Of a stretch of 64,000 nucleotides of DNA, positions 5,301 through 39,601 are shown one piece after another. Each line of letters starts with the position of its first letter. Positions within the stretch are counted from its first letter, which is position 1. A program made the position numbers and the translations under genes. This DNA is from Mizuhopecten yessoensis (Eukaryota). The notes beneath the pieces are model-generated. The model ran no database searches. It was not told the DNA's origin and saw only the letters and a program-made list of their open reading frames with translations. The stretch is taken from NCBI RefSeq assembly GCF_002113885.1, contig NW_018404538.1:185306-249305 (forward strand), read 5' to 3'.

Positions 5301-7055
5301 GTCTTTGCGTATTGCAGAGTTATCTTCTCTTGGGAGTAGGTATTGATTGTTACGTCATTGGTCTGTGTGAGCAAATTACGTCGTTTTCTCAAAAATTGAT
5401 GACGTTTCTCTCACAAACAAGTGACGTAACAATCAATACCTGCTCCCAAGAGAAGATAACTCTGCAATACGCAAAGTCGGAATAACCCTAATATATATAA
5501 TACACCTAATATATATCCCTCATATAATTATACGTCTATTATATAACCCTAAGATATTTATACACCTAAAATATAGTCCCAACATAAATATACACCTGTT
5601 AATTATATAACCCTCACATAATTATACACCTGATATATAGCCATAACATAAGTATAGACCTAATATACAGCACTAACATAACTTTACACCTAATATATAG
5701 CCCTGACATAATTATAGACATAACATATAGTCAAAACATGATTATAGATCTAATGTACCGCCCAAACATAATTATTCATCTAATTTATAGCCCTGACATA
5801 ATGATACAACTGATATATAGTTCTAACATAATTATACACCTTATATATAGCCCTCACATAATTATGCACCTAATATATAGCCCTAACATAATTACTCATT
5901 TAATATATAGTCCCAACATAATTATAAATCTTATATATAGCCCTTCAATAATTATACACCTAATATACAGCCCTAACATAATTATAGATCTATTATATTG
6001 CCCTAACATCAAAATTCACCTTATATATAGCCCTCATATAATTATACGCCTAAGATATAGCCCTCACATACCTATACAGCTAATTTATAACCCTAACATA
6101 ATTATACACCTATTTATAACCTTAAGCTAATTATACACCTAAAATATAGCCCTTACATAGTTATACGCCTAATATATAGCCCTAACATAATTACACATTT
6201 AATATATAGTCCAAACATAATTATAAACCTTATATAAAACCCGAACATCATTATACACGTAATATGTAGCCCTTACATAACTAAGACTAATATACAGGCC
6301 CTAACATAATTGTACACCTAATATACAGCCCTTACATAATGTTACAACTTACATGTAGCCCTCACATAATTATACACCTAAGATATAGCCAAAACTTAAT
6401 TATACGCTTAATATATAGCCCTAACATAAGTATACACCTAATATATAATTCTTACAAAATTATACACATAATATATAACCTTCATATATTATACACCTAA
6501 TATACATCCCAAACATAGTTATACACCTTATATCTAGCCCTAATATAATTATACACCTAATATATAGCCCTCATATAAAATTACGTCTAATATATAGTCC
6601 CAACATAATTATACACCTAAGATATAGCCCTAACATAATTATACACCTAATACATAAACCCTAACATAATTATAGATCTATTATATAGCTCTCACATAAT
6701 GTTACACCTTATATAGAGACCCAACATAATTATACACCTTATATACAGCCCTGACATTATCATACTCCTAAAATATAACCCTAATATATATAATAAACCT
6801 AATATATATCCCTCATATAATTATACGTCTATTATATAACCCTAAGATATTTATGCACCTAAAATATAGTCCCAACATAAATATACACCTGTTAATCATA
6901 TAACCCTCACATAATTATACACCTAATATATAGCCCTAACATAATTATAGAGCTAATATACAGCTCTAACATAATTATACACCTAATATATAGTCCCAAC
7001 ATAGTTATACATATAATATATAGCCCTCACATCAATACACACCTAATATATATAT
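2300..7055. repeat. 30-bp AT-rich minisatellite (ATAATTATACACCTAATATATAGCCCTAAC) with higher-order duplication
   Basis: Clear 30-nt periodicity. Variant blocks at ~4100 and ~5727 repeat at a 1627-bp offset. Confidence 0.95.
5295..5484. mobile_element. Palindromic MITE with TA target duplication (Tc1/mariner-type), copy 1
   Basis: TA-TTCCGTCTTTGCGTATTGCAGAGTTATC...GATAACTCTGCAATACGCAAAGTCGGAA-TA with long TIRs. The empty site is at ~6775 in the duplicated satellite block. A second copy is at 56205. Confidence 0.9.
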
Positions 7056-8669: not shown

Positions 8670-9192
8670 ATTAATGTGATTTCAGAATTCTTGCTTGCAA
8701 CAACCAATACAAGTCCTAAAGTGACATTCAGATCTTGTAGGTTATAACACAGTACTGTTTTCAAGTTTAGGCTATTAATGTGATTTCAGAATTCTTGCTG
8801 GCAACAACCAATAACAAGTCTTAAAGTGACATTCAGATCTTGTAGGTTATAATACAGTACTGTTTTCAAGTTTAGGACATTAATGTGATTTCAGAATTCT
8901 TGCTGGCAACAACCAATAACAAGCCTTAAAGTGACATTTAGATCTTGTAGGTTATAATACAGTACTGTTTTCAAGTTTAGGCCAGAAATTTGTTTTAAGA
9001 ATTCTTGCTGGCAACAACCAATAACAAGCCTTAAAGTGACATTTAGATCTTGTAGCTTATAATACAGTACTGTTTTCAAGTTAGGCCATTAATGTGATTT
9101 CAGAATTCTTGCTCGCAACAAACAATACAAGTCTTAAAGTGACATTCAGATCTTGTAGGTTATAACACAGTACTGTTTTCAAGTTGAGGCCA
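8670..9192. repeat. ~105-bp tandem repeat, ~5 copies
   Basis: TTAATGTGATTTCAGAATTCTTGC...AGTACTGTTTTCAAG is repeated. Confidence 0.9.
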
Positions 9193-11246: not shown

Positions 11247-13066
11247 ATGTAAATAATAATGGCGGCGCCCAGTACCAAGTTGCCTTGTCGACTATGTCAT
11301 GATTTATGTAAAAAGACAAAGGAGGACAATGATCAGTTGGTAGAGATAATTGGCCATATTCTAACTGTAAATGATAACCAAGGGAAAATCTTGAAAGTTT
11401 CAAGTTTTGCTAGTAAAGTGTCTATGCAAGGTGGCAAGGGAGGGAAATTAAACACAAGACTTAATCTGCCAAGGTTGAATAGTACAAATTTAAATTATGA
11501 ACCCTTGGCTATTGAAGATGGTGAGATAACGAGGTTCGATCGTAAAAAAAGATGTATAGCTGTTGATAGGACGTACATTAAACAATACTAAATCAAATCT
11601 GAAATTTATTTTGACATAAAGATCTTATTTATTTGGATAATTTCATGGAAATGATGACTTGTTATTTTAAACAAATGATTTGTTAATTTCAGCTTGCATG
11701 CACTGTATGAATGTTGTTTTAATAATATTGTACCCGTATGAATCCATGATTGTCGTGAAGTGGTGCTTTATTTGAATTTAATACATTTGATGCTCTATTA
11801 CCTGACCTGGAACGCATTCGTAGCCATACCGAGACAATTACAATACTGTGGTATAACTGCATGTATATATATTGTGTACATAGTTTAAGCGTCTGCGAGA
11901 CCAGCTGTTTTAACTTACAAACGTCCAGGTGACGAGAAAGAACACGAGAGGAATGTTTTTGACTTTTGACAGGAGCTGTAGGCAATTCACACTTTTCAAT
12001 TTGTACTATTCTTCTTTTTGGATAACGACGCTTTAACAGAAGTAACATACCACTATGCTTATATCCGATAATTTTAAGATAAAAAACCCCACACACAAGC
12101 TTTTAGTCACGAACTTTTCCTTGAATGCGCCTATGTATAATCTTCGGCACGATGTTAACACAAGTTAAGGTACACTATTGATGCCGACATGTACAAATGT
12201 ATGTACAGTAAACTGTAAAACGAAAGTAGGTCTGCGCGATCGCAAACATTTAATGCTGATATTTTGGCATAAATGTCAGTTAGTACTTGATGTGATAGCA
12301 ATGGATTAAACGAGTGTTACCTTGTTTCCTATTCTAGCACATCAGTGTCTCAATACATACGGTATTAATCTGTTAATGTTCGATAAACGTCTGTTTATTA
12401 TAACTGTCCTGATTATGTTGTGACGTATTTCCGGGTCACGTTCTCGTATCAAGTGCGCTTCCAGTTACGTTATAAAATGCAAAATCTTGATATTTATTAA
12501 TTAAAGATAGTTTAAAGACTAAACGAGTTAATAAAAACAATATCAATACATTGTAAATATTATGTTCTTGCATGTTTGAGAAGCAGACGACGTTTGATCA
12601 TAATCTCGAAACTAGAAAAAAAAAAAAATGAAAAAAAATGTGGTTTAACATTTGAAAAAAAAAGTTTGAAGGGGACAAAATCAATTGGTTCTTTTATGAA
12701 TTAATAAAAGTGATACAAAAAAGAAATATAGTAAATAATAGATAGTATTTTTTTTCAAAAACATCATCCTTAGAGAGTATGTGCTGGGCATGATCATTTA
12801 GAATCTTTGCAATACGTCAAACTCTTTCCAACGCGCATCAGCTTGAGATTAGGCCACTGTTTACAAAATGGCGACTGGAAGTAGCAAGGCGGATTAAATT
12901 GGAACTTCAATTGTGAATATTTCGGCAAGTAAACATTGTTCACAAAGCCCATGTGGTCTGTTCATCTAATTTAGTTAAGATGTACTCAGACCAGTCGTTG
13001 TTTAGTCGCTAGGGTCATTCACAAAAAAAATAGTATTATTATATAAACTTATTGTAGTTAAACAGA

Positions 13067-16000
13067 ATTATACCCCTTATATATAGCCCTCATATAATAA
13101 TACACACATAATATACAGCCCTAACATAATTATAGATCTATTTTATAGCCCTCACATAGTTTTACCCCTAATATACAGCCCTAAAATAATTATACACCTA
13201 ATATATAACCCTTATATAAGTATACACCTAATGTAAACCCTTACAAAATTAGAGATCTATTAAATAGCCCTAACATAATTAAACCCCTTATATATAGCCC
13301 TCACATATTTATATACCTAATATATAGCCCTAACAAACATTGTAAATACACACCTTACATAACTATACATCTAATATATAACGATTACATATTTATACAC
13401 CTAATGTATAGCTCTTACATAATTATAGACCTAATATAAAGCCCTAACATAAATATACATCTAAGATATAGTCCCAAAATAGTTATACATATAATATATA
13501 ACCCTCACATCAATACACACCTAATATATAGCCCTCACATAATTATAGATCTATTATAACGCCCTAATATCATTATACACCTAATATATAGCCCTCATAT
13601 AATCATACGCCTAGGATATAGCCCTATACAGCTAATATAGAACCCTAACATAATTGTACACCTATTCTATGACCCTAAGATAATTATAGACCTAAAGCAT
13701 AGTCCTAACATAATTATACGCCTAATGTACCGCCCAAACATAATTATTCCACTACTTTATAGCCCTTACATAATTATACAACTAATATATAGTTCTAACA
13801 TAATTATACACCTTATATATAGCCCTCACATAATTATACACCTAATATATAGTCTTCATATAATGATACATCTAATATATAGCCCTAACATAATAACTCA
13901 TTTAATAAATAGTCCCAACATAATTATAAACCTTATATATAGCCCTTACATAATTATACACCTAATGTTAAACCCTTACATAAATATACATCTAATATAT
14001 AGCCCTCGCATAAGTATACACCTAACATATAGTCCCAACATAATTATACACCTAATACATAGTCTTCACATAATTATAAACCTACTATATAACCCCTACA
14101 TAATTATACACCTAATATATAGCCCTCATATAATTATGCGTCTAATATATACTCCCATCATAATTATACACTAAAAGATATAGCCCTAACATAAGTATAC
14201 ACCTAATATATAGCCCTAACATAACTATACACCTAATGTATACCCTAACAAAATTAGAGATCTATTAATTAGCCCTAACATAATTTAACCCCTCATATAC
14301 AGCCCTCACATATTTATATACCTAATATATAGCCCTAACAAACATTGTAAATACACACCTTATATGTAGGCCTTACATAATTATACACCTAATATATAAC
14401 GATTACATATTTATACACCTAATGTATAGCTCTTACATAATTATAGACCTAATATAAAGCCCTAAAATAACTATACATCTAAGATATAGTCCCAACATAG
14501 TTATACATTTAATATATAGCCCTCACATCAATACACACCTAATATATAGCTCTCAAATAATTATAGATCTATTATATTGCCCTAACATAATTATACACCT
14601 TATATACAGCCCTAACATAATTATACAACTAATATATAGTCCCAACATAGTTATTCATATAATATATAGCCCTCACATCAATACACACCTAATATATAGC
14701 CCTCACATAATTATAGATCTATTATAACGCCCTAATATCATTATACACCTAATATATAGCCCTCAAATAATTACACGCCTAAGATATAGCCCTATACAGC
14801 TAATATATAACCCTTACATAATTATACTATTATATGACCCTAAGATAATTATATACCTAAAATATAGTCCCAACATAATTATACGCCTAATGTACCGCCA
14901 AAACATAATTATTCCCCTACTTTATAGCCCTTACATAATTATACAACTAAGATATAGTTCTAACATAATTATACACCTTATATATAGCCCTCACATAATT
15001 ATACACCTTATATATAGTCTTCATATAATGATACATCTAATATATAGCCCTAACATCAATACACGCATAATATACAGCCCTAACATAATTATAGATCTAT
15101 TTTATATCCTCACATAGTTTTACCCCTAATATATAGCCCTAACATAATCATACCTCTAATATACAGCCCTAAAATAGTTATACACCTAATATATAACCCT
15201 AATATAATTATACACCTAATATATAGCCCTCATATAATTATACGTCTACTGTATACTCCCAACATAATAATACACTAAAATATATAGCCCTAACATAATT
15301 ATACACCTAATATACAGCCCTCACATATTCATATACCTTATATATAGCCCTTACATAATTATACATCTAAGATATAGTCCCAACATAGTTATACATATAA
15401 TATATAGCCCTCACATCAATACACACCTAATATATAGCCCTCACATACTTATAGATCTATTATATTGCCCTTACATCATAATACACCTAATACATAGCCC
15501 TCACATAATTATACGCCTAAGTCATAGCCCTCGCATACCTATACAGCTAATATATAACCCTAACATAATTATACACCTATTATATAACCCTAAGATAATT
15601 ATTCACCTAAAATATAGCCCTTACATAGTTATACGCCTAATATATAGCCCTAACATAATTACACATTAAGTATATAGTCCGAACATTATTGTAAACCTTA
15701 TATATAACCCTAACATAATTATACACGTAATATGAAGCCCTCACATAATTAAGACCTAATATACAGCCCTAACATAATTGTACACCAATTATACAGCCCT
15801 AACATAATTTTACAACTTACATATAGCCCTCACATAATTATACACCTAATATATAGCCCAAACATAATTATACGCCTAATATATAGTCCTAACATAATTA
15901 TACACCTTATATATAGCCCTCACATAATTACACACCTAATATATAGCCTTCTCATATTATACACCTAATATACATCCCAAACATAATTATACCACAAATA

Positions 16001-16290
16001 TATAGCCCTCATATAAGTATACACCTAATATATAACCCTAACTTAAATACACACATAATATACAGCCCTAACATAATTATAGATCTATTTTATAGCCTCA
16101 CATAGTTTTACTCCTAATATATAGCCCTAACATAATCATACCTCTAATATACAGCCCTAAAATAATTATACACCTAATATAAAGCCCTTACATAATCATA
16201 CCTCTAATATACAGCCCTAACATAATTATTCACCTAATAGCTAACCCTAATATAATTATACACCTAATATATAGCCCTCATATAATTATC
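13067..16290. repeat. Second array of the same 30-bp minisatellite
   Basis: Same unit and the same rare variants (ATGTACCGCCCAAAC, ACATTGTAAATACAC) as 2300-7055. Confidence 0.95.
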
Positions 16291-16772: not shown

Positions 16773-17231
16773 TGTATAGCTTTGACATAATTACACTCCT
16801 AATGTTTAGCCCTAATGTAAGTGTTGCTTAACAGATACCTATTTGTTCAATGCAGTTTATCTTGGTCACGTTTATTAACAGGCGAGGGCCAGCATGGACA
16901 TCCACGTGACTTCAGATACGGGTATTTGATATGTCTAGTTACGTGTGTGGTAACGTGACCCCTATATTGACATTGACATAGTTCGAGTTTTAATTTATTT
17001 TGTTGACTATGCGTATTTGTTGATTATGCTTTGGAAGGGTTTCGGCCACGCTATAAAATAGCTTACCATCTGCATTTAAGACTCTTTCGCACATACGATG
17101 TTCGTCATGTACACACCACCCTATATATCTATAAATATTCATACCGATGTAAAATGTTGATTTGTGTGCCTTTTTATTTACTATATTTATAACTGTCACT
17201 GAACATGTAGGTGCATTATTATGCATGTGCA

Positions 17232-17300
17232 GTAAAGTGCCTTAGAGTAATTTTCAAATTATTTAGGGCGCTATACAATTGTTGTATCTATTATTCATTT
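17232..17300 (+). mobile_element. L2-like LINE/SINE 3' tail remnant
   Basis: GTAAAGTGCCTTAGAG...TAGGGCGCTATACAA followed by TTAT-rich tail resembles the L2-type 3' stem-loop. Confidence 0.35.
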
Positions 17301-17656
17301 TATTTTTTAATTGCATAATATGCCGAATGTGTATTTGGCATTCTGAGGTGTACCAAGGTTTAAGTATAAGTGGAAGAGCAAAGTTGGCCAAAGAAAAACT
17401 CCAGCACAATGTTCAGGGAAAGGTGGTGGGTGTTAGGGCAGAGGAAACGAGGAAAAATGGGTTCTTAATACCGACCTCTATATTGCTTTTCATCTGGTAC
17501 ATCATCGATGGTCGGGTTGGTCAGGCATACACGTGTCCAAGTCAGGGAAGGGGTGATAAGGTAATAGGGTCATGTTTATTTTGTTTTCATAATGACCCTA
17601 CATGGACATTTTTCACGATAAGAAATGTGTTTCGTAAGCACTTGTTTTTCTGGTAC

Positions 17657-17664
17657 TATATAAG
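17657..17664 (+). promoter_or_regulatory. Candidate TATA box of the SOUL gene
   Basis: TATATAAG lies ~65 nt upstream of a strong donor CAAG|GTAAGA at 17728/17729. Confidence 0.5.
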
Positions 17665-17684
17665 GCCACTACTGCTCAGAGATA

Positions 17685-17728
17685 CCACACAATACAGCGA
17701 CGCCTACTATACTACCTTCCACTACAAG
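17685..17728 (+). other. Probable non-coding first exon (5' UTR) of the SOUL gene; start approximate
   Basis: TATA upstream and AAG|GTAAGA donor. A matching acceptor TATTCCAG| sits 2 nt before the ATG at 19825. Confidence 0.5.
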
Positions 17729-19490
17729 GTAAGATTTTCCTACTTTTTTCTCCTCACATGGCATGGTAAGATTTTCTATACAAACCCTTCGTTACAAGGC
17801 AGATTTCATCCTATACCCTCCACTAAAAGGTAAGATTTTTCTACTTAAATCCTCAACCACAAGATTGTTCTACTTATACCCTCAAGTACAAAGTCAGATA
17901 GATCAGGTTTTTCTATTAACACCCCCCATTACAAGGTAAGGTTTTTCTATTAACACCCTCCATTACAAGGTAAGCTTTTTCTATTAACACCCTCCATTAC
18001 AAGGTAAGGTTTTTCGTCGTATACCCTCCAGTACAAAGTAAGACTTTTCTAGTGATATTCTCCTTCAAAAGGTACGTAAGATTGTTTTGCTTTTATCCTT
18101 CTGTACGAGGAACGATTTTCCCTTCTCATTGTACTTACTCCCTCTTATATAAGGTTAAACGTTTCTACTGATACCTTCCAGTAGCATGGTAAGATTCTTC
18201 AATTGATTTTAGTACACGACCTTATTCGTTTGGTTTTTTCTGCTTATACCCTTTAGTAAAAGGAACGATTTTATTACTTATTCCGTTCTAACACATAACA
18301 AGATTCATTTTCTTATACCATCAAGTACATGGTAAGCTTTTTCTACTGATACTTTCCAATACAAGGTAAGCTTTTTCTACTGACATTCTCTAGTACATGG
18401 TAAGCTTTTTCTACTGATACTCTCAAGTACAAGGTAAGCTTTTTCTACTGATACTCTCCAGTACAAAGTAAGCTTTTTCTACTGATACTCTCCAGTACAA
18501 GGTAAGCTTTTTCTACTGATACTCCCAAGTACAATGTAAGCTTTTTCTACTGATATTCTCCAGTACAAGGTAAGCTTTTTCTACTGATACTCTCCAGTAC
18601 AAGGTAAGCTTTTTCTACTGATACTCCCCAGTACAATGTAAGCTTTTTCTACTGATATTCTCCAGTACAAGGTAAGCTTTTTCTACTGATACTCTCCAGT
18701 ACAAGGTAAGCTTTTTCTACTGATACTCTCCAGTACAAGGTAAGGTTTTTCTACTAATACTCTCCAGTACAAGGTAAGCTTTTTCTACTACTACTCACCA
18801 GTAAAAGGTAAGCTTTTTCTACTGATACTCTCCAGTACAAGGTAAGCTTTTTCTACTGATACTCTCCAGTACAAGGTAAGCTTTTTCTACTGATACTCTC
18901 CAGTACAAGGTAAGCTTTTTCTACTGATACTCTCCAGTACAAGGTAAGCTTTTTCTACTGATACTCTCCAGTACAAGGTAAGCTTTTTCTACTGATACTC
19001 TCCAGTACAAGGTAAGCTTTTTCTACTGATACTCTCCAGTACAAGGTAAGCTTTTTCTACTGATACTCTCCAGTACAAGGTAAGCTTTTTCTACTGATAC
19101 TCTCCAGTACAAGGTAAGCTTTTTCTACTGATACTCTCCAGTACAAGGTAAGCTTTTTCTACTGATATTCTCCTGTACAAGGTAAGCTTTTTCTACTATT
19201 ACTCTCCAGTACAAGGTAAGCTTTTTCTACTGATACTCTCCAGTACAAGGTAAGCTTTTTCTACTTATACTCTCCAGTACAAGGTAAGCTTTTTCTACTG
19301 ATATTCTCCTGTACAAGGTAATCTTTTTCTACTGATACTCTCCAGTACAAGGTAAGCTTTTTCTACTATTACTCTCCAGTACAAGGTAAGCTTTTTCTAC
19401 TGATACTCTCCAGTACAAGGTAAGCTTTTTCTACTGATACTCTCCAATACAAGGTATTTTTTTTCTACTTAAACCCTCTAGTACAAGGTT
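17715..19490 (+). repeat. 34-bp minisatellite (TACAAGGTAAGCTTTTTCTACTGATACTCTCCAG); degenerate to ~18325, homogeneous after
   Basis: 34-nt period, e.g. GGTAAG at 18841 and 18875. Confidence 0.95.
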
Positions 19491-19824
19491 TGGTTATTCA
19501 CATTTTACATTGACATTCACATTTACATAACCTGTGTTTAAATATATCAGTAGGTTATAGAATACACTCTTCTCCTTTCCATGTACATAAAAAAAGAACA
19601 AGATTATAAAAGGTAATCTAAACAGTGATGTTAAATTCCGATAAGTCGTTGTTTAGGGCTCAACTATATGCGCTATTCGTTTAAAAATTTGTAAAGGGTC
19701 ACATAGTGAGAATGTTTGAGAAACTCAATGAAAAGTACGGAGCTTTATGTCCGTCGGACAGAATAGATGTATAGCGTCACAAAAATAAATAGACTAATAA
19801 CGTTTTGATTTAAATATTCCAGCC

Positions 19825-19974
19825 ATGCGGTGCCTTGTCTATCTTACCTACTGCGTGGCCGTATCCTGCGCACTGGCCGTGGTGCAGCCCCTACCCAATG
19901 TCCAACAAGCAGCACCGCCAGCTTTCTGCCATGACCAGGAATGTCCGAAGTATTCAGTGACACAGTCATTTACG
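19825..19974 (+). CDS. SOUL family heme-binding protein (HEBP2-like), secreted; coding exon 1
   Basis: GCCATG start, signal peptide MRCLVYLTYCVAVSCALA, then PPAFCHDQECPKYSV. Phase-0 donor ACG|GTAAAC. Confidence 0.9.
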
Positions 19975-22900
19975 GTAAACTCGATGTTTTCGTTTTTTCT
20001 TTCTTTAGTGGCAGCGATGAAGGTTCCTAATTTGGGCACTGTTGACAGAGCTGTCTTAATTCAAAATGAATGAAAAAAGATAGCCTATCCAATAGTACAT
20101 CAAAAAAAGTACATGTATGTATAACTTGTCGACGAGGATAAGTTAAAAATGTTTCTCGCATAGATGAGGGTTCCAAGGGGATGTATCTCACTCACAAAGA
20201 TGAGTTTACCAAGGGGATGTTTCTCACTAACATATATAAGAGTAACAAGGGGATGTTTCTCGAATAGATGAGGGTAACAAGGGGATGTATCTCACATAGA
20301 TGAGGGTAACAAGGGAATGAATCTCACAAAGATCAAAGTAACAAGGGAATGTATCTCACATACATGAGGAGAACAAGAGAATATATCTCACATAGATGAG
20401 GGTAAACAGGGAATGTATCATACAAAGATGAGGGTAACAAGGTAACGTATATCACATAGATGAGGGTAACGAGGGTATGCATCTCACATAGATGAGGGTA
20501 AAAAGGAAATGCATCTCACAAAGATGAGGATAAAAGAGAATATATCTCACAAAGATGAATGTAATAAGGGAATGTGTCACACATAGATGAAGGTAACAAG
20601 GAAATGTATCTCACAAAGATAAAGGTCACATGGTAATATATCTCCTATAAATGAGAGTAACAAAGGAACGTATACGGGTAACAACGGAATATATCTCACA
20701 TAGATGAGGGTAACAATGGAATATATCTCATAAAGATTAGGGTAACAATGGAATTGTATCTCACATAGATGAGGGTAACAAGGGGATGTATCTCACATAG
20801 ATAAGGGTAACAAGGGGATGTATCCCACAAAAATGAGGATAAAAAGGGAATGTATCTCACTTAGATGAGGGAAACAAGGTAATGTATCTCACAAAAATGA
20901 GGATAAAAAGGGAATGTATCTCACTTAGATGAGGGAAACAACGGAATGTATCTCACAAAGATGAGGATAGAGAGGGGATGTATCTCACAAAGAGGAAGGT
21001 AACAAGGGGATGTATCTCATATAGATGAGGGTAACAAGGGGATGCATCTCACATAGATGAGGGTAACAAGGGGATGTATCTCACATAGATGAGGATGAAA
21101 GTGAATGTATCTTACAAAGATGAGGATAAAAGGGGATGTATCTCACAAAGATGAGGGTAACAAGGTCATGTATCTTACCAAAATGAGGATAAAAAGGGAA
21201 TGTATCTCCGATAGTTGAGTGAAACAAAGGAATGTATCTCACAAAGATGAGGATAAAACGGAATGTATCTCACAAAAATTAGGATAAAAAGGGAATGCAT
21301 CTCAACTAGATGAGGATAAAAATGGAATGTATCTCACAAAGAAGAGGATAAAAGGGAATGTATCCAACAAAGATGAGGATAGAGAGGGGATGTATCTCAC
21401 AAAGGTGAGGGTAACAAGGGAATGCATCTGACATCATTGAAGGTAACAATTGAATGTATGTCGTAAGATGAGGGTAACAAGGTAATGTATCTACTATAGA
21501 TGAGGGTAACAAGGGGATGTATCTCACATAGATAGGGGTAACAAGGTAATGTATCTACTATAGATGAGGGTAACAATTGAGTGTATCTCACAAAGATGAG
21601 GGTAACAAGGGAATGTGTCTCACTAAGATGAGGGTAACAAGGTTTATGTATCTCACAAAAATGAGGATAAAAAGGAATGTATCTCACAAAGATGAGGATA
21701 GAGAGGGGATGTATCTCACAAAGATGGAGTAACAAGAGAATGCATCTGACATCATTGAAGGTAGCAATTGAATGCATGTCACAAGATGAGGGTAACAAGG
21801 TAATGTATCTACTGTAGATGAGGGTAACAATTGAGTGTATCTCACAAAGATGAAGGTAACAAAGAATGTATCTCACAAAGATTAGGATAAAAAGGGAATG
21901 TATCTCATCTAGATGAAGATAAAAAGGGAATGTATCTCACAAAGAAGAGGATAAAAGGGAATGTATCCCACAAAAATGAGGATAGAAAGGGGATGTATCT
22001 CACAAAGGTAAGGGTAACAAGGGAATGTATCTGACATCATTGAAGGTAAAAATTGAATGTATGTCACAAGATGAGGGTAACAAGGTAATGTATCTACTGT
22101 AGATGAGGGTAAAAATTGAGTGTATCTCACATAGTTGAGGGTAACAAGGCAATGTGTCTCACAAAGATGGGGATAAAAAGGGAATGTATCTCACAAAGAT
22201 GAGGGTAACAAGGGAATGTGTCTCACTAAGATGAGGGTAACAGGTAATGTATCTCACAAAAATGAGGGTAAATTTAACAAGGGGATGTATCTCACATAGA
22301 TAAAGGTAACAAGGGAATGTATCTCATATATATGAGTGTAACAAAGGAAAGTATCTCACATAGATGAGTTTAGCAAGGAGATGTTTGTCACATAGATGAG
22401 GATAAAAAGGAAATTATTTGACAAAAGTGAGGGAAACAAGGGATCAATGTATCTCGCATAGATGAAGATAACAAGGAATGTATCTCACAAAGATGTGGAT
22501 AACAAGGAAATGTATATCACAAAGATGAGGGTAACAAGGGAATGTATCTCACAAAGATGAGAGTAACAATGGAATGTATCTCAGATATATGAGGGTAATA
22601 CAAGAATGCATATCTCATAGCTGAGGGTAACAAGGGGATGTATCTCACATAGATGAGGTAACAAGGGAATGTATGTCACAAAGATGAGTATAACAAGGGA
22701 ATGTATCTCACATAGATGAGGGTAACAAGGGGATGTATCTCACAAAAATGAGGATAAAAAGGGAATGTATCTCACACAAATGAGGGAAACAACGGAATGT
22801 ATCTCACTTAGATGAGGGAAACAATCGAATGTATCTCACAAAGATGAGGGTAAGACGGGAATGTATCTCACATAGTTCAGGGTAACAATTAAATGTATCT

Positions 22901-24428
22901 CACAAAGATGAGGGTAAAAGGGGAATGCATCTGACATAGAAGAGGGTAACAAGAGCATGTATCTTACATAAATGAGATTAACAAGGGAATGTATCTGACA
23001 TAGATGAGATTAACAAATGGAATGTAATTGACGAAGATGGGGGTAACAAGGGAATGTATCTCCATTACGTGAGGGAAACAAGGGATCAGTGTATCTCACT
23101 TAGATGAGGATAGTAAGAGAATGTATTTCACAAAGATGAAGATAACAAGGGAATGTATCTCACAAAGATGACGATAACAAGGGAATGCATCGCAGATAGA
23201 TGAGGGTAATAAGGGAATGTCTCTCTCATAGATAAGGGTAAAAAGAGAATGTATCTCACAAAGATGAGATCATTGAAGGTAGCAATTGAATGCATGTCAC
23301 AAGATGAGGGTAACAAGGTAATGTATCTCACAAAGATGAAGATAGAGAGGGGATGTATCTCACAAAGATGGAGTAACAAGAGAATGCATCTGACATCATT
23401 GAAGGTAGCAATTGAATGCATGTCACAAGATGAGGGTAACAAGGTAATGTATCTCACAAAAATGAGGGTAAGAAGGGAATGCATCTGACATACATCTAGA
23501 TGGAAGTAACCAGGGAATGTATCTCACAAATATGAGATTAACAAGGGAATGTATATGACAAGAATGAGGGCAATAAGGGAATGTATCTCACAAATACAAG
23601 GGTAACAAAGGAAAGTATCTCACATAGAGCACGAATTTATCAATGTATTCAGCTAAACAAATCGTCCGTTTTCTTGAATCTAAAATTCTCAATGTTATTT
23701 ATATTTGGTATGTATCTCACAAAGATGAGATTTACAAGGGAATTTATCTCAATTAGTTCAGTGTAACAATTAAATGTATCTCACACATATGAGGGTAACA
23801 AGGGAATGCATCTGACGTAGAAGAGGGTAACAAGGGAATGTATCTTTTATAAATGAGATTTACAAGGGAAAGTATCTGACATAGATGATATTAACAAGGG
23901 AATGTAATTGACGAAGATGGGGGTAACAAAGGAATGTATCTCATAAAGATAAGGGTAACAAGGGAATGTATCTCACAAAGATGAGGTTAACAAGGGAATG
24001 TATCTTACATAAATGACACTAATAAGGGAATGTATCTCACATAGATGAGGTTAGCAAAGATATGTATCTCACATAGATGAGGATAAAAAGGGAATTATCT
24101 GACAAAGGTGAGGGAAACAATGTTATGTAGATATATCTCACAAAGATGAAGACAACAAGGAATACTTCTCACAAAGATGAGGATAACAAGGAAATGTATA
24201 TCACAAAGATGTTGATACATGTAACAAGGGAATGTATTTCAGATAGATGAGGGTAATGATGGAATGTATCTATCATAGATGAGGGTAAAAAGAGAATGTA
24301 TCTCACAAAGATGATGGTTAAAAGGGAATGTTTCTCCATTACGTGAGGGAAACAAGGGATCAATGTATCTCACAAAGGTGAGGATAACAAGGGAATGTAT
24401 CTCAGATAGATGAGAGTAATAAGGGAAT

Positions 24429-24700
24429 TTATCACATACCTGTTGAATCTTGTTTTAGTAATACAAGCAATTTTCATACCATGAAATACAACGTTCTGTA
24501 TTGCACATGTGCAATACGGAATGTTGTATTTACCTACTAGCCGGAACTACATTTTATGAGAATCCCCTTGTCATGGCGAACTGAAAAGTTCCCGGTATTT
24601 GCAAAAAATATCAAAGTTTAGAAAATCTTTGTATCGATCTCTACCAAATACGGAAGGTATGTGATTAAAGAAAGACCACACACTTGTGTGTGGTCTTGCA
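24429..24700 (+). mobile_element. Non-autonomous Helentron/HINE-like element, copy 1
   Basis: Sub-terminal IRs ATCACATACCT (24431-41) / AGGTATGTGAT (24655-65) followed by a 12-bp-arm palindrome (24672-97), plus an internal hairpin. Confidence 0.6.
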
Positions 24701-27307
24701 TATGTATCTCTCATAGATGAGGGTTAAAAGAGAATGTATCTTACAAAGATGAGGGTAAAAAGGGAATGTATCTGCATTACGTGAGGGAAACAAGGGATCA
24801 ATGTATCTCACTTAGATGAGGATAAAAAGAGAATGTATCTCACATAAATGAGGATAGTAAGGGAATGTATCTCACATCGATGAGGGTAACAGGAGAATGT
24901 ATCTCACAAAGATAAGGGGAACAATGTTATGTATCTCCTATAGGTGAGGGTAGTAAGAGAATGTATCTCACAAAGATGAGTGTAACAAGGGAATGCATCT
25001 CACATAGATGAGGGTAACAAGGGGATGTATCTCACAAAAATGAGGATAAAAAGGGAATGTATCTCACTTATATGAGGGAAACAACGGAATGTATCTCACT
25101 TAGATGAGGATAAAAGGGAATGTATCTCACAAAGATGAGGGTAAGAGGGGATTGTATCTCACAAAGATAAGGGGAACAATGTTATGTATCTCCTATAGGT
25201 GAGGGAAGTAAGTGAATGTATCTCACAAAGATGAGTGTAACAAGGGAATGCATCTGACATGTAGATGAGAGTAACCAGGGAATGTATCTTACAAAGATGA
25301 GGTAACAAGGGAATGTATCCGACATAGATATGATTAACAAGGGAATGTATCTGACATAGATGAGATTAACAAAGGAATGTATCTGGCAAGAATGAGGGTA
25401 ACAAAGGAAAGTATCTCACATAGACGAGGATAACAAGTGAATTGTATCTCACATAGATAAGGAAAAAAGGGAAGTTATCTAACATATATGAGGGAAAGAA
25501 GGTAAAGGTATCTCACATCGATGAAGATAAAAAGGGAATGTATCTCACATAGATGAGGGTAACAAGGGGATGTATCCCCACAAAAATGAGGATAAAAAGG
25601 GAATGTATCTCACACAAATGAGGGAAACAACGGAATGTATCTCACTTAGATGAGGAAAACAATCGAATGTATCTCACAAAGATGAGGGTAAGACGGGAAT
25701 GTATCTCACATAGTTCAGGGTAACAATTAAATGTATCTCACAAAGATGAGGGTAAAAGGGGAATGCATCTGACATAGAAGAGGGTAACAAGGGCATGTAT
25801 CTTACATAAATGAGATTAACAAGGGAATGTATCTGACATAGATGAGTTTAACGAATGGAATGTAATTGACGAAGATGGGGGTAACAAGGGAATGTATCTC
25901 CATTACGTGAGGAAAACAAGGAATCCGTGTATCTCACTTAGATGAGGATAGTAAGAGAATGTATCTCACAAAAATGAGGATAACAAGGGAATGTATCTCA
26001 CAAAGATGACGATAACAAGGGAATGTATCTCAGATAGATGAGGGTAATAAGGGAATGTATCTCTCATAGATAAGGGAAAAAAGAGAATGTATCTCACAAA
26101 GATGAGGGTAAAAATGGAATGTATCTCCATTACGTGAGGGAAACAAGGGATCAATGTTTCTCACTTAGATGAGGATAAAAAGGGAATGTATCTCACATAA
26201 ATGAGGATAATAAGGGAATGTATCTCACTTAGATTAGGATAAAAAGGGAATGTATCTCACATCGATGAGGGTAACAACGGAGGGGAACAATGTTATGTAT
26301 CTCCTATAGATGAGGGTAACAAGGGAATGCATCTGACATACATCTAGATGGAAGTAACCAGGGAATGTATCTCACAAAGATGAGGTAACAAGGGAACGTA
26401 TCTGACATAGATATGATTAACAAGGGAATGTATATGACAAGAATGAGGGCAATAAGGGAATGTATCTCACAAATACAAGGGTAACAAAGGAAAGTATCTC
26501 ACATAGAGCACGAATTTATCAATGTATTCAGCTAAACAAATCGTCCGTTTTCTTGAATCTAAAATTCTCAATGTTATTTATATTTGGTATGTATCTCACA
26601 AAGATGAGATTTACAAGGGAATTTATCTCAATTAGTTCAGTGTAACAATTAAATGTATCTCACACATATGAGGGTAACAAGGGAATGCATCTGACGTAGA
26701 AGAGGGTAACAAGGGAATGTATCTTTTATAAATGAGATTTACAAGGGAAAGTATCTGACATAGATGATATTAACAAGGGAATGTAATTGACGAAGATGGG
26801 GGTAACAAAGGAATGTATCTCATAAAGATAAGGGTAACAAGGGAATGTATCTCACAAAGATGAGGTTAACAAGGGAATGTATCTTACATAAATGACACTA
26901 ATAAGGGAATGTATCTCACATAGATGAGGTTAGCAAAGATATGTATCTCACATAGATGAGGATAAAAAGGGAATTATCTGACAAAGGTGAGGGAAACAAT
27001 GTTATGTAGATATATCTCACAAAGATGAAGACAACAAGGAATACTTCTCACAAAGATGAGGATAACAAGGAAATGTATATCACAAAGATGTTGATACATG
27101 TAACAAGGGAATGTATTTCAGATAGATGAGGGTAATGATGGAATGTATCTATCATAGATGAGGGTAAAAAGAGAATGTATCTCACAAAGATGATGGTTAA
27201 AAGGGAATGTTTCTCCATTACGTGAGGGAAACAAGGGATCAATGTATCTCACAAAGGTGAGGATAACAAGGGAATGTATCTCAGATAGATGAGAGTAATA
27301 AGGGAAT

Positions 27308-27579
27308 TTATCACATACCTGTTGAATCTTGTTTTAGTAATACAAGCAATTTTCAGACCATGAAATACAACGTTCTGTATTGCACATGTGCAATACGGAA
27401 TGTTGTATTTACCTACTAGCCGGAACTACATTTTATGAGAATCCCCTTGTCATGGCGAACTGAAAAGTTCCCGGTATTTGCAAAAAATATCAAAGTTTAG
27501 AAAATCTTTGTATCGATCTCTACCAAATACGGAAGGTATGTGATTAAAGAAAGACCACACACTTGTGTGTGGTCTTGCA
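27308..27579 (+). mobile_element. Non-autonomous Helentron/HINE-like element, copy 2 (part of the 2879-bp duplication)
   Basis: Near-identical to 24429-24700 with the same satellite flanks. Confidence 0.6.
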
Positions 27580-30500
27580 TATGTATCTCTCATAGATGAG
27601 GGTTAAAAGAGAATGTATCTTACAAAGATGAGGGTAAAAAGGGAATGTATCTGCATTACGTGAGGGAAACAAGGGATCAATGTATCTCACTTAGATGAGG
27701 ATAAAAAGAGAATGTATCTCACATAAATGAGGATAGTAAGGGAATGTATCTCACATCGATGAGGGTAACAGGGGAATGTATCTCACAAAGATAAGGGGAA
27801 CAATGTTATGTATCTCCTATAGGTGAGGGTAGTAAGAGAATGTATCTCACAAAGATGAGTGTAACAAGGGAATGCATCTCACATAGATGAGGGTAACAAG
27901 GGGATGTATCTCACAAAAATGAGGATAAAAAGGGAATGTATCTCACTTATATGAGGGAAACAACGGAATGTATCTCACTTAGATGAGGATAAAAGGGAAT
28001 GTATCTCACAAAGATGAGGGTAACAGGGGAATGTATCTCACAAAGATAAGGGGAACAATGTTATGTATCTCCTATAGGTGAGGGTAGTAAGAGAATGTAT
28101 CTCACAAAGATGAGTGTAACAAGGGAATGCATCTCACATAGATGAGGGTAACAAGGGGATGTATCTCACAAAAATGAGGATAAAAAGGGAATGTATCTCA
28201 CTTATATGAGGGAAACAACGGAATGTATCTCACTTAGATGAGGATAAAAGGGAATGTATCTCACAAAGATGAGGGTAAGAGGGGATTGTATCTCACAAAG
28301 ATAAGGGGAACAATGTTATGTATCTCCTATAGGTGAGGGAAGTAAGTGAATGTATCTCACAAAGATGAGTGTAACAAGGGAATGCATCTGACATGTAGAT
28401 GAGAGTAACCAGGGAATGTATCTCACAAAGATGAGGTAACAAGGGAATGTATCTGACATAGATATAATTAACAAGGGAATGTATCTGACATAGATGAGGT
28501 TAACAAAGTAATGTATCTCACATAGACGAGGATGACAAGTGAATTGTATCTCACAAAGTTGAGGGTAACAAGGGAATGTGTCTCACAAAGATGGGGATAA
28601 AAAGGGAATGTATCTCACAAAGATGAGGGTAACAAGGGAATGTGTCTCACTAAGATGAGGGTAACAAGGTAATGTATCTCACAAAAATTAGGGGAACAAC
28701 GGAATGCATCTGACATAGATGATTTAACTAGGGGATGTATCTCACATAGATAAGGGTAACAAGGGAATGTATCTCACAAAGATGAGGGTAACAAGGGAAT
28801 GTGTCTCACAAAGATGGGAATAAAAAGGGAATGTATCTCACAAAGATGAGGGTAACAAGGGAATGTGTCTCACTAAGATGAGGGTAACAAGGTAATGTAT
28901 CTCACAAAAATTAGGGGAACAACGGAATGCATCTGACATAGATGATTTAACTAGGGGATGTATCTCACATAGATAAGGGTAACAAGGGAATGTATCTCAC
29001 AAAGATGAGGGTAACAAGGGAATGTGTCTCACAAAGATGGGAATAAAAAGGGAATGTATCTCACAAAGATGAGGGTAACAAGGGAATGTGTCTCACTAAG
29101 ATGAGGGTAACAAGGTAATGTATCTCACAAAAATTAGGGTAACAACGGAATGCATCTGACATAGATGATTTAACTAGGGGATGTATCTCACATAGATAAG
29201 GGTAACAAAGGAAAGTATCTCACATAGATGAGTTTAGCAAGGAGATGTATGTCACATAGATGAGGATAAAAGGGAAATTATTTGACAAATGTGAGGGAAA
29301 CAAGGGATCAATGTATCTCGCATATATGAGGATAACAAGGAATGTATCTCACAAAGATGTGGATAACAATGTTATGTATCTCCAATATGTGAGGGTAGGA
29401 AGAGAATGTATCTCACAAAGATGAGTGTAACAAGGGAATGCATCTGACATGTAGATGAGAGTAACCAGGGAATGTATCTCACAAAGATGAGGTAACAAGG
29501 GAATGTATCTGACATAGATATGATTAACAAGGGAATGTATCTGACATAGATGATATTAACAAGGGAATGTATCTCACAAAGATGAGGGTAACAAAGGAAA
29601 GTATCTCACATAGACGAGGATAACAAGTGAATTGTATCTCACATAGATAAGGAAAAAAGGGAAATTATCTAACATATATGAGGGAAAGAAGGTTAAGGTA
29701 TCTAACATCGATGAAGGGAAGTAAGGGAATGTCTCTCACAAAGATGAGTGTAACAAGGGGATGTATCCCACAAAAATGAGGATAAAAAGGGAATGTATCT
29801 CACTTATATGAGGGAAACAACGAATGTATCTCACTTAGATGAGGATAAAAGGGAATGTTTCTCACAAAGATGAGGGTAAGACGGGATTGTATCTCACAAA
29901 GATAAGGGGAACAATGTTATGTATCTCCTATAGGTGAGGGAAGTAAGTGAATGTCTCTCACAAAGATGAGTGTAACAAGGGAATGCATCTGACATGTAGA
30001 TGAGAGTAACCAGGGAATGTATCTTACAAAGATGAGGTAACAAGGGAATGTATCCGACATAGATATGATTAACAAGGGAATGTATCTGACATAGATGAGA
30101 TTAACAAAGGAATGTATCTGGCAAGAATGAGGGTAACAAAGGAAAGTATCTCACATAGACGAGGATAACAAGTGAATTGTATCTCACATAGATAAGGAAA
30201 AAAGGGAAGTTATCTAACATATATGAGGGAAAGAAGGTAAAGGTATCTCACATCGATGAAGATAAAAAGGGAATGTATCTCACATAGATGAGGGTAACAA
30301 GGGGATGTATCCCCACAAAAATGAGGATAAAAAGGGAATGTATCTCACACAAATGAGGGAAACAACGGAATGTATCTCACTTAGATGAGGAAAACAATCG
30401 AATGTATCTCACGAAGATGAGGGTAAGACGGGAATGTATCTCACATAGTTCAGGGTAACAATTAAATGTATTTCACAAAGATGAGGGTAAAAGGGGAATG

Positions 30501-33414
30501 CATCTGACATAGAAGAGGGTAACAAGGGCATGTATCTTACATAAATGAGATTAACAAGGGAATGTATCTGACATAGATGATATTAACAAGGGAATGTATC
30601 TCACAAAGATGACGATAACAAGGGAATTTATCTCAGATAGATGAGGGTAATAAGGGAATGTATCTCTCATAGATAAGGGAAAAAAGAGAATGTATCTCAC
30701 AAAGATGAGGGTAAAAATGGAATGTATCTCCATTACGTGAGGGAAACAAGGGATCAATGTTTCTCACTTAGATGAGGATAAAAAGGGAATGTATCTCACA
30801 TAAATGAGGATAGTAAGGGAATGTATCTCACTTAGATAGGATAAAAAGGGAATGTATCTCACATAAATGAGGATAGTGAGGGAATGTATCTCACTTAGAT
30901 TAGGATAAAAAGGGAATGTATCTCACAAAGATGACGATAACAAGGGAATTTATCTCAGATAGATGAGGGTAATAAGGGAATGTATCTCTCATAGATAAGG
31001 GAAAAAAGAGAATGTATCTCACAAAGATGAGGGTAAAAATGGAATGTATCTCCATTACGTGAGGGAAACAAGGGATCAATGTTTCTCACTTAGATGAGGA
31101 TAAAAAGGGAATGTATCTCACATAAATGAGGATAGTAAGGGAATGTATCTCACTTAGATTAGGATAAAAAGGGAATGTATCTCACATCGATGATGGTAAC
31201 AACGGAGGGGAACAATGTTATGTATCTCCTATAGATGAGGGTAACAAGGGAATGCATCTGACATACATGTAGATGGAAGTAACCAGGGAATGTATCTCAC
31301 AAAGATGAGGTAACAAGGGAACGTATCTGACATAGATATGATTAACAAGGGAATGTATATGACAAGAATGAGGGCAATAAGGGAATGTATCTTACAAATA
31401 CAAGGGTAACAAAGGAAAGTATATCACATAGATAAGGATAAAAGTGAAATTATTTAACATATATGAGGGAAAGAAGGTAATGGTATCTCACATCGATGAA
31501 GATAAAAAGGGAATGTATCACACATAGATGAGGGTAACAAGGGGATGTATCTCACAAAAATGAGGATAAAAAGGGAATGTATCTCACTTAGATGAGGGAA
31601 ACAACGGAATGTATCTCACAAATATGAGATTAACAAGGGAATTATCTCACATAGTTCAGGGTAACAAATAAATGTATCTCACAAAGATGAGGGTAACAAG
31701 GGAATGTATCTTACATAAATGACATTAATAAGGGAATGTATCTGACATAGATGAGATTAACAAGAGAATGTATCTAACATAAATGAGGATACAAAGGGAA
31801 TTATCTGACAAAGGTGAGGGAAACAGGGTAATGTAGATGAATCTCACAAAGATGAAGATAACAAGGAATATATCTCACAAAGATAAGGATAACAAGGAAA
31901 TGTATGTCAGATATATAAGGGTAATAAGGGAATGTGTCTCTCATAGATGAGGATAAAAAGAGAATGTATCTCACAAAGATGAGGGTAAAAAGGGAATGTA
32001 TCCCACATAAATGAGGATAGTAAGGGAATGTATCTCACTAAGGTGAGGATAAAAAGGGAATGTATCTCACATCGATGATGGTAGTTAGGGAATGTATCTC
32101 ACAACGATGAGGGTAACAAAAGAATGTATCTCAGAAAGATGAGGGTAACAAAGGAAATTATCTCACATAGACGAGGATAACAAGATAATTGTATCTCACA
32201 TAGATTAGGATAAAAAGGGAATGTATCTCATATAAATGGGGGAAAGAAGGTAATGGTATCTCGTATAGAAAAAGGTAAAAAGGGAATTATCTCACAAAGG
32301 TGAGGGAAACATGGTTATGTATATCACAAAGGTAAGTGAAAAAGGGAATATACCTCACTTAGATAGGATACAAAGGGAATGTATCTCACGAAGATGAGGA
32401 TAACAAGGGAATGTATCTCACATAGATGAGGATAACAAGGGGATGTATCTCACATAGATGAGGATAACAAGGGAATGTGTTTTGCATAGATGAGGATAAC
32501 AAGAAAATTGTATCTCACATAGATTAGGATAAAAAGGGAATGTATCTCACATAGATGAGGGTAACAAGGGAATCTATCTCACATAGATGAGGATAACAAG
32601 GGAATGAATCTCACACAGATGGTGGTAACAAGGGAATGTATCTCACACAGATGAGGATAACAAGGGAATGAATCTCACACAGATGGGGTAACAAGGGAAT
32701 GTATCTCACACAGATGGGGGTTACAAGGGAATGTATCTCACACAGATGAGGGTAACAAGGGAATGCATCTCACATAGATGATGATAACAAGGTATTGTAT
32801 CTCACATATATGAGGATATCAAGGGAATGCATCTCACATAGATGAGGATAACAAGGGATTGCATTTTATAGGAGGATTACAAGAGCAATTATCCGACAAT
32901 TATAGAATAGAGTTCTTAACCTCGAGATCTTATTCCAAGGGTTGAAATTTCTCTCTGCATGACACATGAGTGATTAATTATTTTTCTACCTGACTCCTGT
33001 TCCGTAAACCATAGTTACAATGGTGACTTACAAGTACCGTGCAATTATCAAGGGCGCATGTGTGACATTATGAATGAAGCTTCCCTGGTTACACTGCATT
33101 TCAGAGTAAAAACGTGTTTGAGTTGACTTCTCCTAGGTAGGAAAAGAAGGGCTATCTTTTCCCTAGCAAAAACGGGAACATATCTGCTTAGTGTAAGAGA
33201 AATTAAAATCTTATTAACTTTGATTTCCAAATTATGCAATTTACATGTAGTACGAACTTATCAATGTATTCAGCTAAACAAATCGTCCGTTTTCTTGAAT
33301 CTTAAATTCTCAATGTTTTTTATATTTGGTAACGTTTGTGGCTTCTTTATAAGCTATGTATTGTAGCAGATGTTGACCAGTCTGTAATTTACATACCTTT
33401 ATTAATTGTTTTAG

Positions 33415-33547
33415 GGGTACGAGTTGCGACACTACGAGGAATCCGTGTGGGTAGCTACCAATTTGACTACAATGGAGTTTACCCAAAACGACAGCAGCGA
33501 AATGTTTTTCAAACTATTTCACTATATCTCCGGCAATAATTCTAAAC
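33415..33547 (+). CDS. SOUL heme-binding protein, coding exon 2
   Basis: TTTTAG| acceptor. GYELRHYEESVWVAT...MFFKLFHYISGNNSK matches the SOUL YExRxY and FxxLFxYIxGxN motifs. Donor C|GTAAGT, phase 1. Confidence 0.92.
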
Positions 33548-36500: not shown

Positions 36501-37165
36501 CTGTTATAGTATTTATATATATATATATAACAATGTCACTTGAGTAGCATTACGTACAGGGTCTGTTATGGTATTTATATATATATATAACAATGTCACT
36601 TGAGTACCATTATGTACAGGGTCTTTTATAGTATTTGTATATAAATAACAATGTCACTTGAGAACCATTATGTACAGGGTCTGTTATAGTATTTGTATAT
36701 ATATAACAATGTCACTTGAGTAGCATTACGTACAGGGTCTGTTATGGTATTTATATATATATATAACAATGTCACTTGAGTACCATTATGTACAGGGTCT
36801 GTTATAGTATTTGTATATATATATAACAATGTCACTTGAATATCATAATGTACAGGGTCTGTTATAGTATTTGTATATGCATAACAATGTCACTTGAGTA
36901 CCATTATGTACAGGGTCTGTTATAGCATTTGTATATATATTACAATGCCACGTGAGTACCATTACGTACAGGGTCTGTGATAGTATTTGAATATAAATAA
37001 CAATGTCACTTGAGTACCATTATGTACAGGGTCTGTTATAGTATTTGTATATATATTACAATGCCACTTGAGTACCATTACGTACAGGGTCTGTTATAGT
37101 ATTTGTATATATTTAACAATGTCACTTGAGTACCTGTGATAGTATTTGTATATATATAGCAATGT
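33548..37165. repeat. 58-bp minisatellite, ~60 copies, homogeneous core
   Basis: Unit AACAATGTCACTTGAGTACCATTATGTACAGGGTCTGTTATAGTATTTGTATATATAT. Confidence 0.95.
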
Positions 37166-37329: not shown

Positions 37330-37667
37330 AGTGAAAGTAGAATATGTACAGCGACCCCTAGGAGAAGGGGCGCAACTCTTTGCGTCACGCTACTTTCCCG
37401 AAGTCTCAGCGGTCCAATTAGTGCCCGTCTCCAGGTATAGTTCCCGTTGTCAAGGGCGGATGCTTAATATACCAAATAGAACAAGGGTAGTTAACCAATA
37501 GCAATCCTAGAAAGTATCATGTGATGTACTAAACATATATATTATTACAGACGTTAAGATACCGATGACCACTTCGGTTATACCATATATACTATATGAA
37601 TACAGACGTTAAGATACCGATGACAACCCCTGTTATACCATATATATATATATATATATGATTACAG

Positions 37668-37848
37668 ACGTTAAGATACCGATGACCACTCCGGTTATAC
37701 TAAAGGTGGAACACGGACCGGGACCAACATGTGAGAGCTTCTTTTATGACCACTTCATGGTACCATTTGAATTTCAAGACGATCCTCCAGTTCCAACCGA
37801 CCCTAGTGTTTATATCACAGTGTTACCTCCCTTTGACGTCTACGTTAA
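37668..37848 (+). CDS. SOUL heme-binding protein, coding exon 3
   Basis: TTACAG| acceptor. (H)VKIPMTTPV...FMVP...PPVPTDPSVYI...VYVK matches SOUL motifs KIxMTxPV and PPxPxDxxV. Donor AA|GTAAGT, phase 2. Confidence 0.92.
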
Positions 37849-39426: not shown

Positions 39427-39601
39427 GTCTTTTGGAGGCCGCCCGTCATTCGACGAGAAAATGGCTATGATTGAATCTCTTGTAACAGAAATAGCAGACC
39501 CGTCGCGTTTCGAGGAAAGGTTTTATTACTTTGCGGGATATGACGGTCCATACACTATTAATCACCGCCACAACGAGGTGTGGCTGGTAGCCCGGCATTA
39601 G
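39427..39601 (+). CDS. SOUL heme-binding protein, coding exon 4 (terminal)
   Basis: TTACAG| acceptor. SFGG...YYFAGYDGPYTINHRHNEVWLVARH* matches the SOUL C-terminal AGYxxP...RxNEVW motif. Exons total 639 nt, 212 aa. Confidence 0.93.

Follow-up and report, generated by a model that had tools for sequence, protein, structure and literature searches.

Introduction

Why does the 5' untranslated region of a scallop gene contain a minisatellite whose unit ends in a good splice donor, and are any of those donors used? The question arises in the first intron of a SOUL gene of Mizuhopecten yessoensis, where a 34-bp unit combines a branch-like CTGAT, a CAG, the hexamer TACAAG and a GTAAG donor. Minisatellites whose first unit straddles an exon/intron boundary are a known class, with five human cases described by Borensztajn et al. 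(2006, PMC1557585). According to that account, only the authentic first donor is used in F7, LMNB2 and PDGF, while two more are used in 6-16, which has 25 pseudo-sites, and in CBS. Pseudo-sites in F7 minigenes are reported to be functional yet non-competing, even if strengthened short of a perfect consensus (PMC1557585). The CBS repeat is designated c.1444_1467+7(16_21), a name that implies 24 exonic and 7 intronic nucleotides (PMC2630376).

In this study, we examine the extent, origin and splice signals of the scallop array within a window of 64,000 nucleotides (contig NW_018404538.1, forward strand), together with the paralogues of its host gene and the RNA evidence on donor choice. A first-pass annotation of the same DNA had read each unit as a complete cassette of acceptor, 6-nt exon and donor, amplified from the junction of exon 1 and intron 1, and had suggested that the copies act as alternative donors, microexons, recursive sites or decoys.

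The host gene and its putative first exon

The assignment of the array to a SOUL gene is confirmed by PF04832 matches in an intact reading frame. The coding exons (19825-19974, 33415-33547, 37668-37848 and 39427-39601) join into a reading frame of 212 aa equal to P0001, a protein labelled heme-binding protein 2-like, Mizuhopecten yessoensis. Three of the four match SOUL above cut-off, and the orthologues in Pecten maximus (XP_033750949.1) and Ylistrum balloti (XP_060062818.1) match at 81-85% over exon 4. The start codon lies 2 nt past the acceptor at 19821-19822. The features on which the argument rests are listed below in window coordinates.

17657..17663, plus strand: TATA-like box, putative promoter, 72 nt before the donor GT (from sequence)
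17688..17728, plus strand: putative non-coding exon 1 of about 41 nt, free of ATGs (start placed by TATA spacing and paralogue architecture)
17703..17744, plus strand: probable founder unit, in which the tail of the exon is combined with the first donor, whose GT is at 17729 (alignment to the unit; 6-nt direct repeats)
17745..18331, plus strand: degenerate 5' part of the array, about 17 units (unit counts, donor scores, window similarity)
18332..19489, plus strand: homogeneous array with 34 copies of the 34-bp unit, 16 of them identical, and 23 intact cassettes (TRF, motif counts)
19823..19974, plus strand: exon 2, acceptor AG at 19821-19822, ATG at 19825 (spliced open reading frame equal to P0001; one RNA read)
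33415..33547, plus strand: exon 3, SOUL PF04832 (E 3.7e-10)
37668..37848, plus strand: exon 4, SOUL PF04832 (E 5.3e-10), acceptor triplicated just upstream
39427..39601, plus strand: coding part of exon 5 with stop, SOUL PF04832 (E 2e-07)

A first exon upstream of the array, as had been proposed, is the most likely arrangement. A paralogue on contig C3864 (L030) has a TATA box with a donor 73-75 nt further on, and its 238-nt intron is free of repeats and ends in an acceptor that precedes the ATG by 14 nt; the distance from TATA box to donor GT in the array gene is 72 nt. The single RNA read described below, which diverges from the genome at the 19821 AG, points the same way. In two further paralogues, a candidate acceptor is found 2 and 7 nt ahead of the ATG. 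Because the paralogue on C3864 has the same layout without the array, the short non-coding first exon is likely to be older than the array. The identical SOUL protein has two RefSeq accessions (XP_021346497.1 and XP_021346498.1), so a second transcript model probably exists and differs outside the coding region; the Pecten and Ylistrum orthologues have one accession each.

Extent and specificity of the array

TRF placed a tandem array at 18324-19489 (period 34, 34.3 copies, 93% matches) and a degenerate repeat run at 17905-18051, 5' of the homogeneous array. Counted from the donor anchor, there are 34 near-identical 34-bp copies at 18332-19487, of which 16 are identical, 10 of them consecutive; estimated by length with the degenerate 5' part included, the total is about 50 units. 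The array occupies 84% of the putative 5' UTR intron at 17729-19822 (2,094 nt), and stop codons appear in all six frames within its first units, which speaks against a coding role. Of the plus-strand AG|GTAAG motifs in the 64-kb window, 32 of 35 fall within 17727-19424, and 23 intact CAG/TACAAG/GTAAG cassettes were counted in the array. These counts bear out the description of a 34-bp minisatellite with more than 30 sense-strand donors.

Similarity to the unit, scored in 50-nt windows, begins in the window at 17700 and is last seen in the window at 19450. Scores run from 22 to 100 within the array and from 10 to 19 in the flanks, against an intergenic background maximum of 24 (116 windows); three windows of the degenerate part, scoring 22, 24 and 26, are at or near that background. 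The array had been given a start at 17715, at the first donor. It does cross the donor, but homology extends from 17703, inside exon 1, and the GT itself lies at 17729. The proposed downstream homogenisation holds in part: the units become more uniform in the 3' direction, as the identical copies and the run of 10 attest; degeneracy, however, returns in the last unit. The run of 10 identical copies may be an assembly error.

The array is a genuine feature of the SOUL locus and specific to it. When the 988-Mb assembly was searched, an exact 32-mer of the array gave 17 matches and an exact 17-mer gave 23, all of them at the array locus. Across 17000-20200 Rfam returned no match at E up to 1, a literature search found no paper on a scallop SOUL-gene array, and of 67 candidates for orthologous DNA among metagenome contigs none was confirmed.

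Origin of the unit at the putative exon 1/intron 1 junction

The tail of exon 1 with its donor aligns to the unit with a score of 51, a value reached by none of 500 shuffled units (maximum 32), and for the exon part alone (score 29) none of 500 shuffles was as good. The unit corresponds to the last ~26 nt of the putative exon followed by the intron's first ~10-16 nt. The claim that this junction was amplified is upheld by these scores, and because the unit copies the junction, the donor in each unit is inherited and not a product of chance. Two 6-nt direct repeats, at 17703 in the exon and 17739 in the intron, bracket the donor 36 nt apart, the pattern expected of a slippage seed, and in the alignment the unit's "acceptor" is a single C-to-G change from the exon's own pyrimidine-rich tail.

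A duplication of about 36 nt between the direct repeats around the donor may have seeded the array. Slippage or unequal exchange would then have enlarged the 3' part and made it uniform, as happened in the gene's other intron minisatellites, and the combination of acceptor and 6-nt exon would have arisen as a by-product, by one C-to-G change in the copied exon tail.

The other intron arrays were also considered as junction copies and rejected. With the exon 4 donor as source of the 39-bp unit, equally good alignments came from 21 of 500 shuffles; with the exon 3 donor as source of the 58-bp unit, 34 of 500; and with the exon 2 donor as source of the 32-bp unit, 319 and 359 of 500.

For background we used a set of 138 arrays with periods of 15-100 and five or more copies, at 90 loci in 897 kb from 5 contigs, which together span 125 kb of the 897 kb. 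Within the SOUL gene, minisatellites cover 12,711 of 13,440 nt of intron 2 (95%) and 3,584 of 4,120 nt of intron 3 (87%). Repeat-filled introns are ordinary here, since background arrays are abundant and introns 2 and 3 are also repeat-filled. The motif AGGTRAG is carried by 3 of the 138 background arrays, against 1.4 expected.

Two other accounts of the donor's presence, that a dispersed scallop minisatellite family supplied it or that transcription starts downstream and leaves the array untranscribed, we consider scarcely credible. Similarity to the degenerate units does exist in a 31-bp array on contig C770 (71-73% over 112-139 nt, E 5e-7 and 6e-6), with a unit score of 32 against a shuffle maximum of 22 in 60. 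However, this match was the top one in a genome of 988 Mb, tandem structure inflates it, and against the homogeneous unit the C770 array scores 26 while shuffles reach 30. Further arguments against these accounts are the confinement of the exact 32-mer and 17-mer patterns to the SOUL locus, the paralogue's promoter-exon layout without an array, and the single read, which is clipped at the acceptor and does not continue into 19490-19822.

Splice signals within the unit

Donor and acceptor matrices were built from 13 sites each, taken from coding exons of the SOUL gene and its paralogues. The unit consensus donor scores 11.2 and the first donor (17729) 9.8, and the 13 real donors range from 3.4 to 11.9, in agreement with the annotation's description of consensus donors. 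In the degenerate part, proximal donors lie at 17766, 17830, 17936, 17970 and 18004; that at 17830 has the same score as the first donor (9.8) and that at 17766 scores 6.5. Donor sites at least as strong as the weakest of the 13 real donors number 44 in 17729-19489 and 47 in 17700-19822. Pairing of U1 with the array donors is predicted at -9.5 kcal/mol, compared with -5.5 to -13.0 for real donors. The array donors are of consensus strength.

The acceptor half of the unit is doubtful, and the idea of a complete acceptor is not confirmed in the form proposed. On the 13-site scallop matrix the unit CAG receives -3.5. This equals the median of 41,329 background AGs, and all 13 real sites are higher when scored by leave-one-out (-0.8 to 13.1). 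The zero-length AAG|GT site, 6 nt downstream of the CAG, scores -5.4. A paralogue's candidate UTR acceptor is likewise low on the same matrix, at -1.7. The T-run lies upstream of the branch-like CTGAT, whose branch-like A falls at -11 from the AG; 90% of human branchpoints are reported 19-37 nt upstream of the acceptor (PMC4315302). The CAG is absent from 8 of the 34 units and variation peaks at the branch-like G (6 of 34), counts in which variants common to several units are non-independent events. Adjacent cassettes would leave an intron of 28 nt, against a minimum given as about 60 nt (PMC3265369), and skipping one unit gives 62 nt, which is feasible because a paralogue has a 59-nt intron (8717-8775, minus strand of L028).

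Other properties of the CAG speak for an acceptor. It is preceded by 8 of 12 pyrimidines, the median of real acceptors (range 6-11), with no other AG within 20 nt upstream. A filter of at least 9 of 12 pyrimidines failed the unit and most real acceptors, and was relaxed post hoc to 7 and 8. None of the 138 background arrays combines a donor with such an acceptor; with the donor (9 nt) held fixed and the rest shuffled, 17.8% of 20,000 sequences contain a YAG preceded by 8 or more pyrimidines out of 12. The alignment suggests that the acceptor is an incidental by-product of the copied exon tail.

Donor choice

RNA mapping covered 19414-20140 and drew on three raw RNA runs (36.3 million records) plus X1. 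One read of the 36.3 million raw records maps to this interval. It spans about 19821-19935, its 5' position being taken from binned depth, and continues for at least 20 letters unlike the genomic stretch, with about 36 nt unaccounted for; that length would fit within the putative exon 1, the letters themselves not being displayed. No part of the read falls on the near-consensus unit at 19414-19453, where an array-derived 5' part would match 37 of 38 bases. At this depth of one read, neither array donors nor microexons are seen in the RNA. X20 and X23 yielded no mapped reads. X1 contributed one contig, of 64 nt, on the array end and none on exon 2, and this contig fits multi-copy words of DNA background as well as it fits RNA. 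Since the read starts exactly at the acceptor AG, it fits a spliced read at 19823. It is consistent with use of the first donor, and a proximal degenerate donor is also compatible with it.

The donors differ in the leader that they would produce. The first gives a leader of about 43 nt with no ATG. Donor 17766 would add two out-of-frame ATGs that overlap the start codon, donor 17830 a 3-codon uORF and an in-frame ATG, and donors from 17970 onward 3- and 58-codon uORFs and more. Two upstream ATGs in the degenerate part, at 17758 and 17763, enter the leader with every later donor examined (17 of 50 candidates), a cost that would favour use of the first.

The locus is probably a junction-derived minisatellite in which splicing proceeds from the first donor at 17729 and the downstream copies are largely silent pseudo-donors. 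By the F7 precedent, the first donor would win and the leader would stay free of upstream ATGs. Against this stand the higher score of the consensus donor (11.2 against 9.8), the two RefSeq accessions for one protein, the derivation of the first-donor rule from mammalian cells and not from molluscs, and the size of the data set, with one read as RNA support and matrices of 13 sites each. Substantial use of the nearest copied donors (17766, 17830 and 17936) is unlikely, although there may be minor use. The longer leaders, with upstream ATGs overlapping the start, would lower translation, ATGs 17758 and 17763 coming in with every later donor examined, or, in the case of 17830, would add an in-frame N-terminal extension. 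The two extra donors employed in 6-16 and CBS (PMC1557585) offer a precedent, 17830 equals the first donor in strength, and the paired RefSeq accessions could reflect two leaders; but those models might instead diverge in an upstream exon or at the 3' end, 17766, the second donor, has a lower score, and the single read neither separates 17729 from the proximal donors nor gives them support.

Processing of the units as 6-nt microexons or recursive relays, with exon 1 joined to a unit CAG and the unit donor to 19823, would add one or more hexamers to the leader or remove the intron stepwise. The 23 intact cassettes, with 6 nt between AG and GT, fall within the microexon size of 3-30 nt, their pyrimidine content and clear upstream stretch match real acceptors, and their geometry is found in none of the 138 background arrays. 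A hexamer adds no ATG to the leader, so its inclusion would be tolerated, and boundary repeats are reported to be able to form new introns (PMC2812944). We nevertheless judge this highly improbable, and the annotation's suggestion of microexon or recursive use is not supported, in view of the weak acceptor, the poor geometry and the short intron: the CAG scores at the background median and AAG|GT lower still, the branch-like A at -11 lies outside the 19-37 nt norm (PMC4315302), the CAG differs from the exon sequence at a single base and lacks conservation among units, and an intron of 2.1 kb is far below the >10 kb described as typical of recursive splicing (PMC13149111). The broader proposal of a length-variable splicing dial in the 5' UTR, in which ~45 donors and 23 cassettes vary hexamers and upstream ATGs and repeat number sets SOUL output, would if true make this a minisatellite of working microexons, and we hold it to be a long shot. 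Promoter-proximal U1 affects transcription, and uncut copies might instead bind U1 snRNP as decoys or promoter-proximal sites, array length then tuning output or splicing speed. All donors are on the sense strand no more than 1.8 kb from the putative start, with predicted pairing inside the real-donor range, but origin alone explains their orientation and position. The array contains no AATAAA or ATTAAA, the sole one in intron 1 lying at 19784, which leaves little for U1 to shield, and the paralogue works without an array. In the account of F7, deletion of the repeat left the splicing pattern unchanged (PMC1557585), which argues against decoys and against the claimed tuning by array length. 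A U1 role is very improbable.

Comparison with known systems

The array shares with the F7, CBS and 6-16 repeats a first unit that spans the putative exon boundary and a donor reiterated at authentic strength. The closest likeness is to the 37-bp VNTR in intron 7 of human F7, which also has a boundary-spanning first unit of similar size with reiterated donors of consensus strength (PMC1557585). The F7 repeat, as described there, has 5-9 units with 4 exonic nucleotides, follows an internal coding exon, and its silence has been shown (PMC1557585); the scallop array has ~50 units with ~20-26 exonic nucleotides, follows a putative non-coding first exon, and is presumed silent. Unlike F7, it has a YAG 6 nt before each donor. 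In number of units it resembles the 31-bp VNTR in intron 13 of human CBS and the minisatellite in intron 2 of 6-16 (IFI6), with 15-21 units and 25 pseudo-sites, respectively (PMC1557585, PMC2630376), and the CBS unit, like that of the scallop, is mostly exon tail (PMC2630376). In CBS and 6-16 two extra donors are reported as demonstrably used (PMC1557585), whereas extra use in the scallop would cost upstream ATGs.

Intron gain by tandem duplication of AG|GT (the Rogers model; Hellsten et al. 2011, PMC3265369; De Grassi and Ciccarelli 2009, PMC2812944) likewise produces junction-like copies that supply a donor and a potential acceptor. Here, in contrast, the paralogue indicates that the intron pre-existed, its donor was duplicated, and the copies stand 28 nt apart, below the ~60-nt minimum. 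Recursive sites and microexons (PMC13149111, PMC9929638) resemble the unit in placing an AG within 0-6 nt of a strong GT donor. The unit differs from them in its short intron, its weak acceptor, a branch-like A that is too close and a lack of conservation across units; a strong zero-length acceptor (here AAG, -5.4) and a long intron (here 2,094 nt) are the recursive-site features that it lacks.

If splicing does proceed from the first donor, this is a mollusc case of a donor amplified into a minisatellite, and the array is tolerated because the first donor wins. The locus then serves as a natural test of the F7 first-donor rule outside mammals, at a first exon and with far more competitors, and has a built-in read-out, in that any later donor adds upstream ATGs. 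The array would gain in importance only with proof that microexons are included or that output depends on its length.

Other repeats at the locus and in relatives

Introns 2-4 contain minisatellites with 32-, 58- and 39-bp units at 20148-32858, 33551-37134 and 37896-38437, and the 58-bp array begins 3 nt past the exon 3 donor. Within 37535-37700 there are three copies of the exon 4 acceptor together with ~30 nt of exon, the AGs ending at 37550, 37605 and 37667. The two upstream copies would cut the protein to 114 and 112 aa, and the RefSeq protein corresponds to the last copy; the triplication is akin to the 68-bp duplication at intron 7/exon 8 described for CBS (PMC2630376).

Among the paralogues, L030 carries a 35-bp array at 5921-6597 (19 copies, two CAG|GT per unit) about 1.2 kb upstream of its TATA box, which may sit in an intron of a neighbouring gene. 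A 23-bp array of 97 copies occupies 967-3204 of L029 (contig C4538), starting ~40 nt past the donor of a SOUL paralogue's coding exon. P0005, an Argopecten irradians protein of 418 aa (XP_069136688.1), clusters with a 205-aa SOUL relative and could represent either a genuine double-domain form or an annotation that fuses two tandem SOUL genes.

Elsewhere in the window, two long arrays of one 30-bp unit lie upstream of the SOUL gene, at 2302-7052 and 13061-16289, the latter stopping 1.4 kb short of the TATA box. Identical TRF rows (115-, 25-, 24- and 29-bp units) at 40281-42812 and 51444-54358 suggest a duplicated block of a few kb, and between the two copies lies minus-strand, coding-like composition with 12- to 18-bp repeats (49929-51215), possibly a long-terminal-repeat element.
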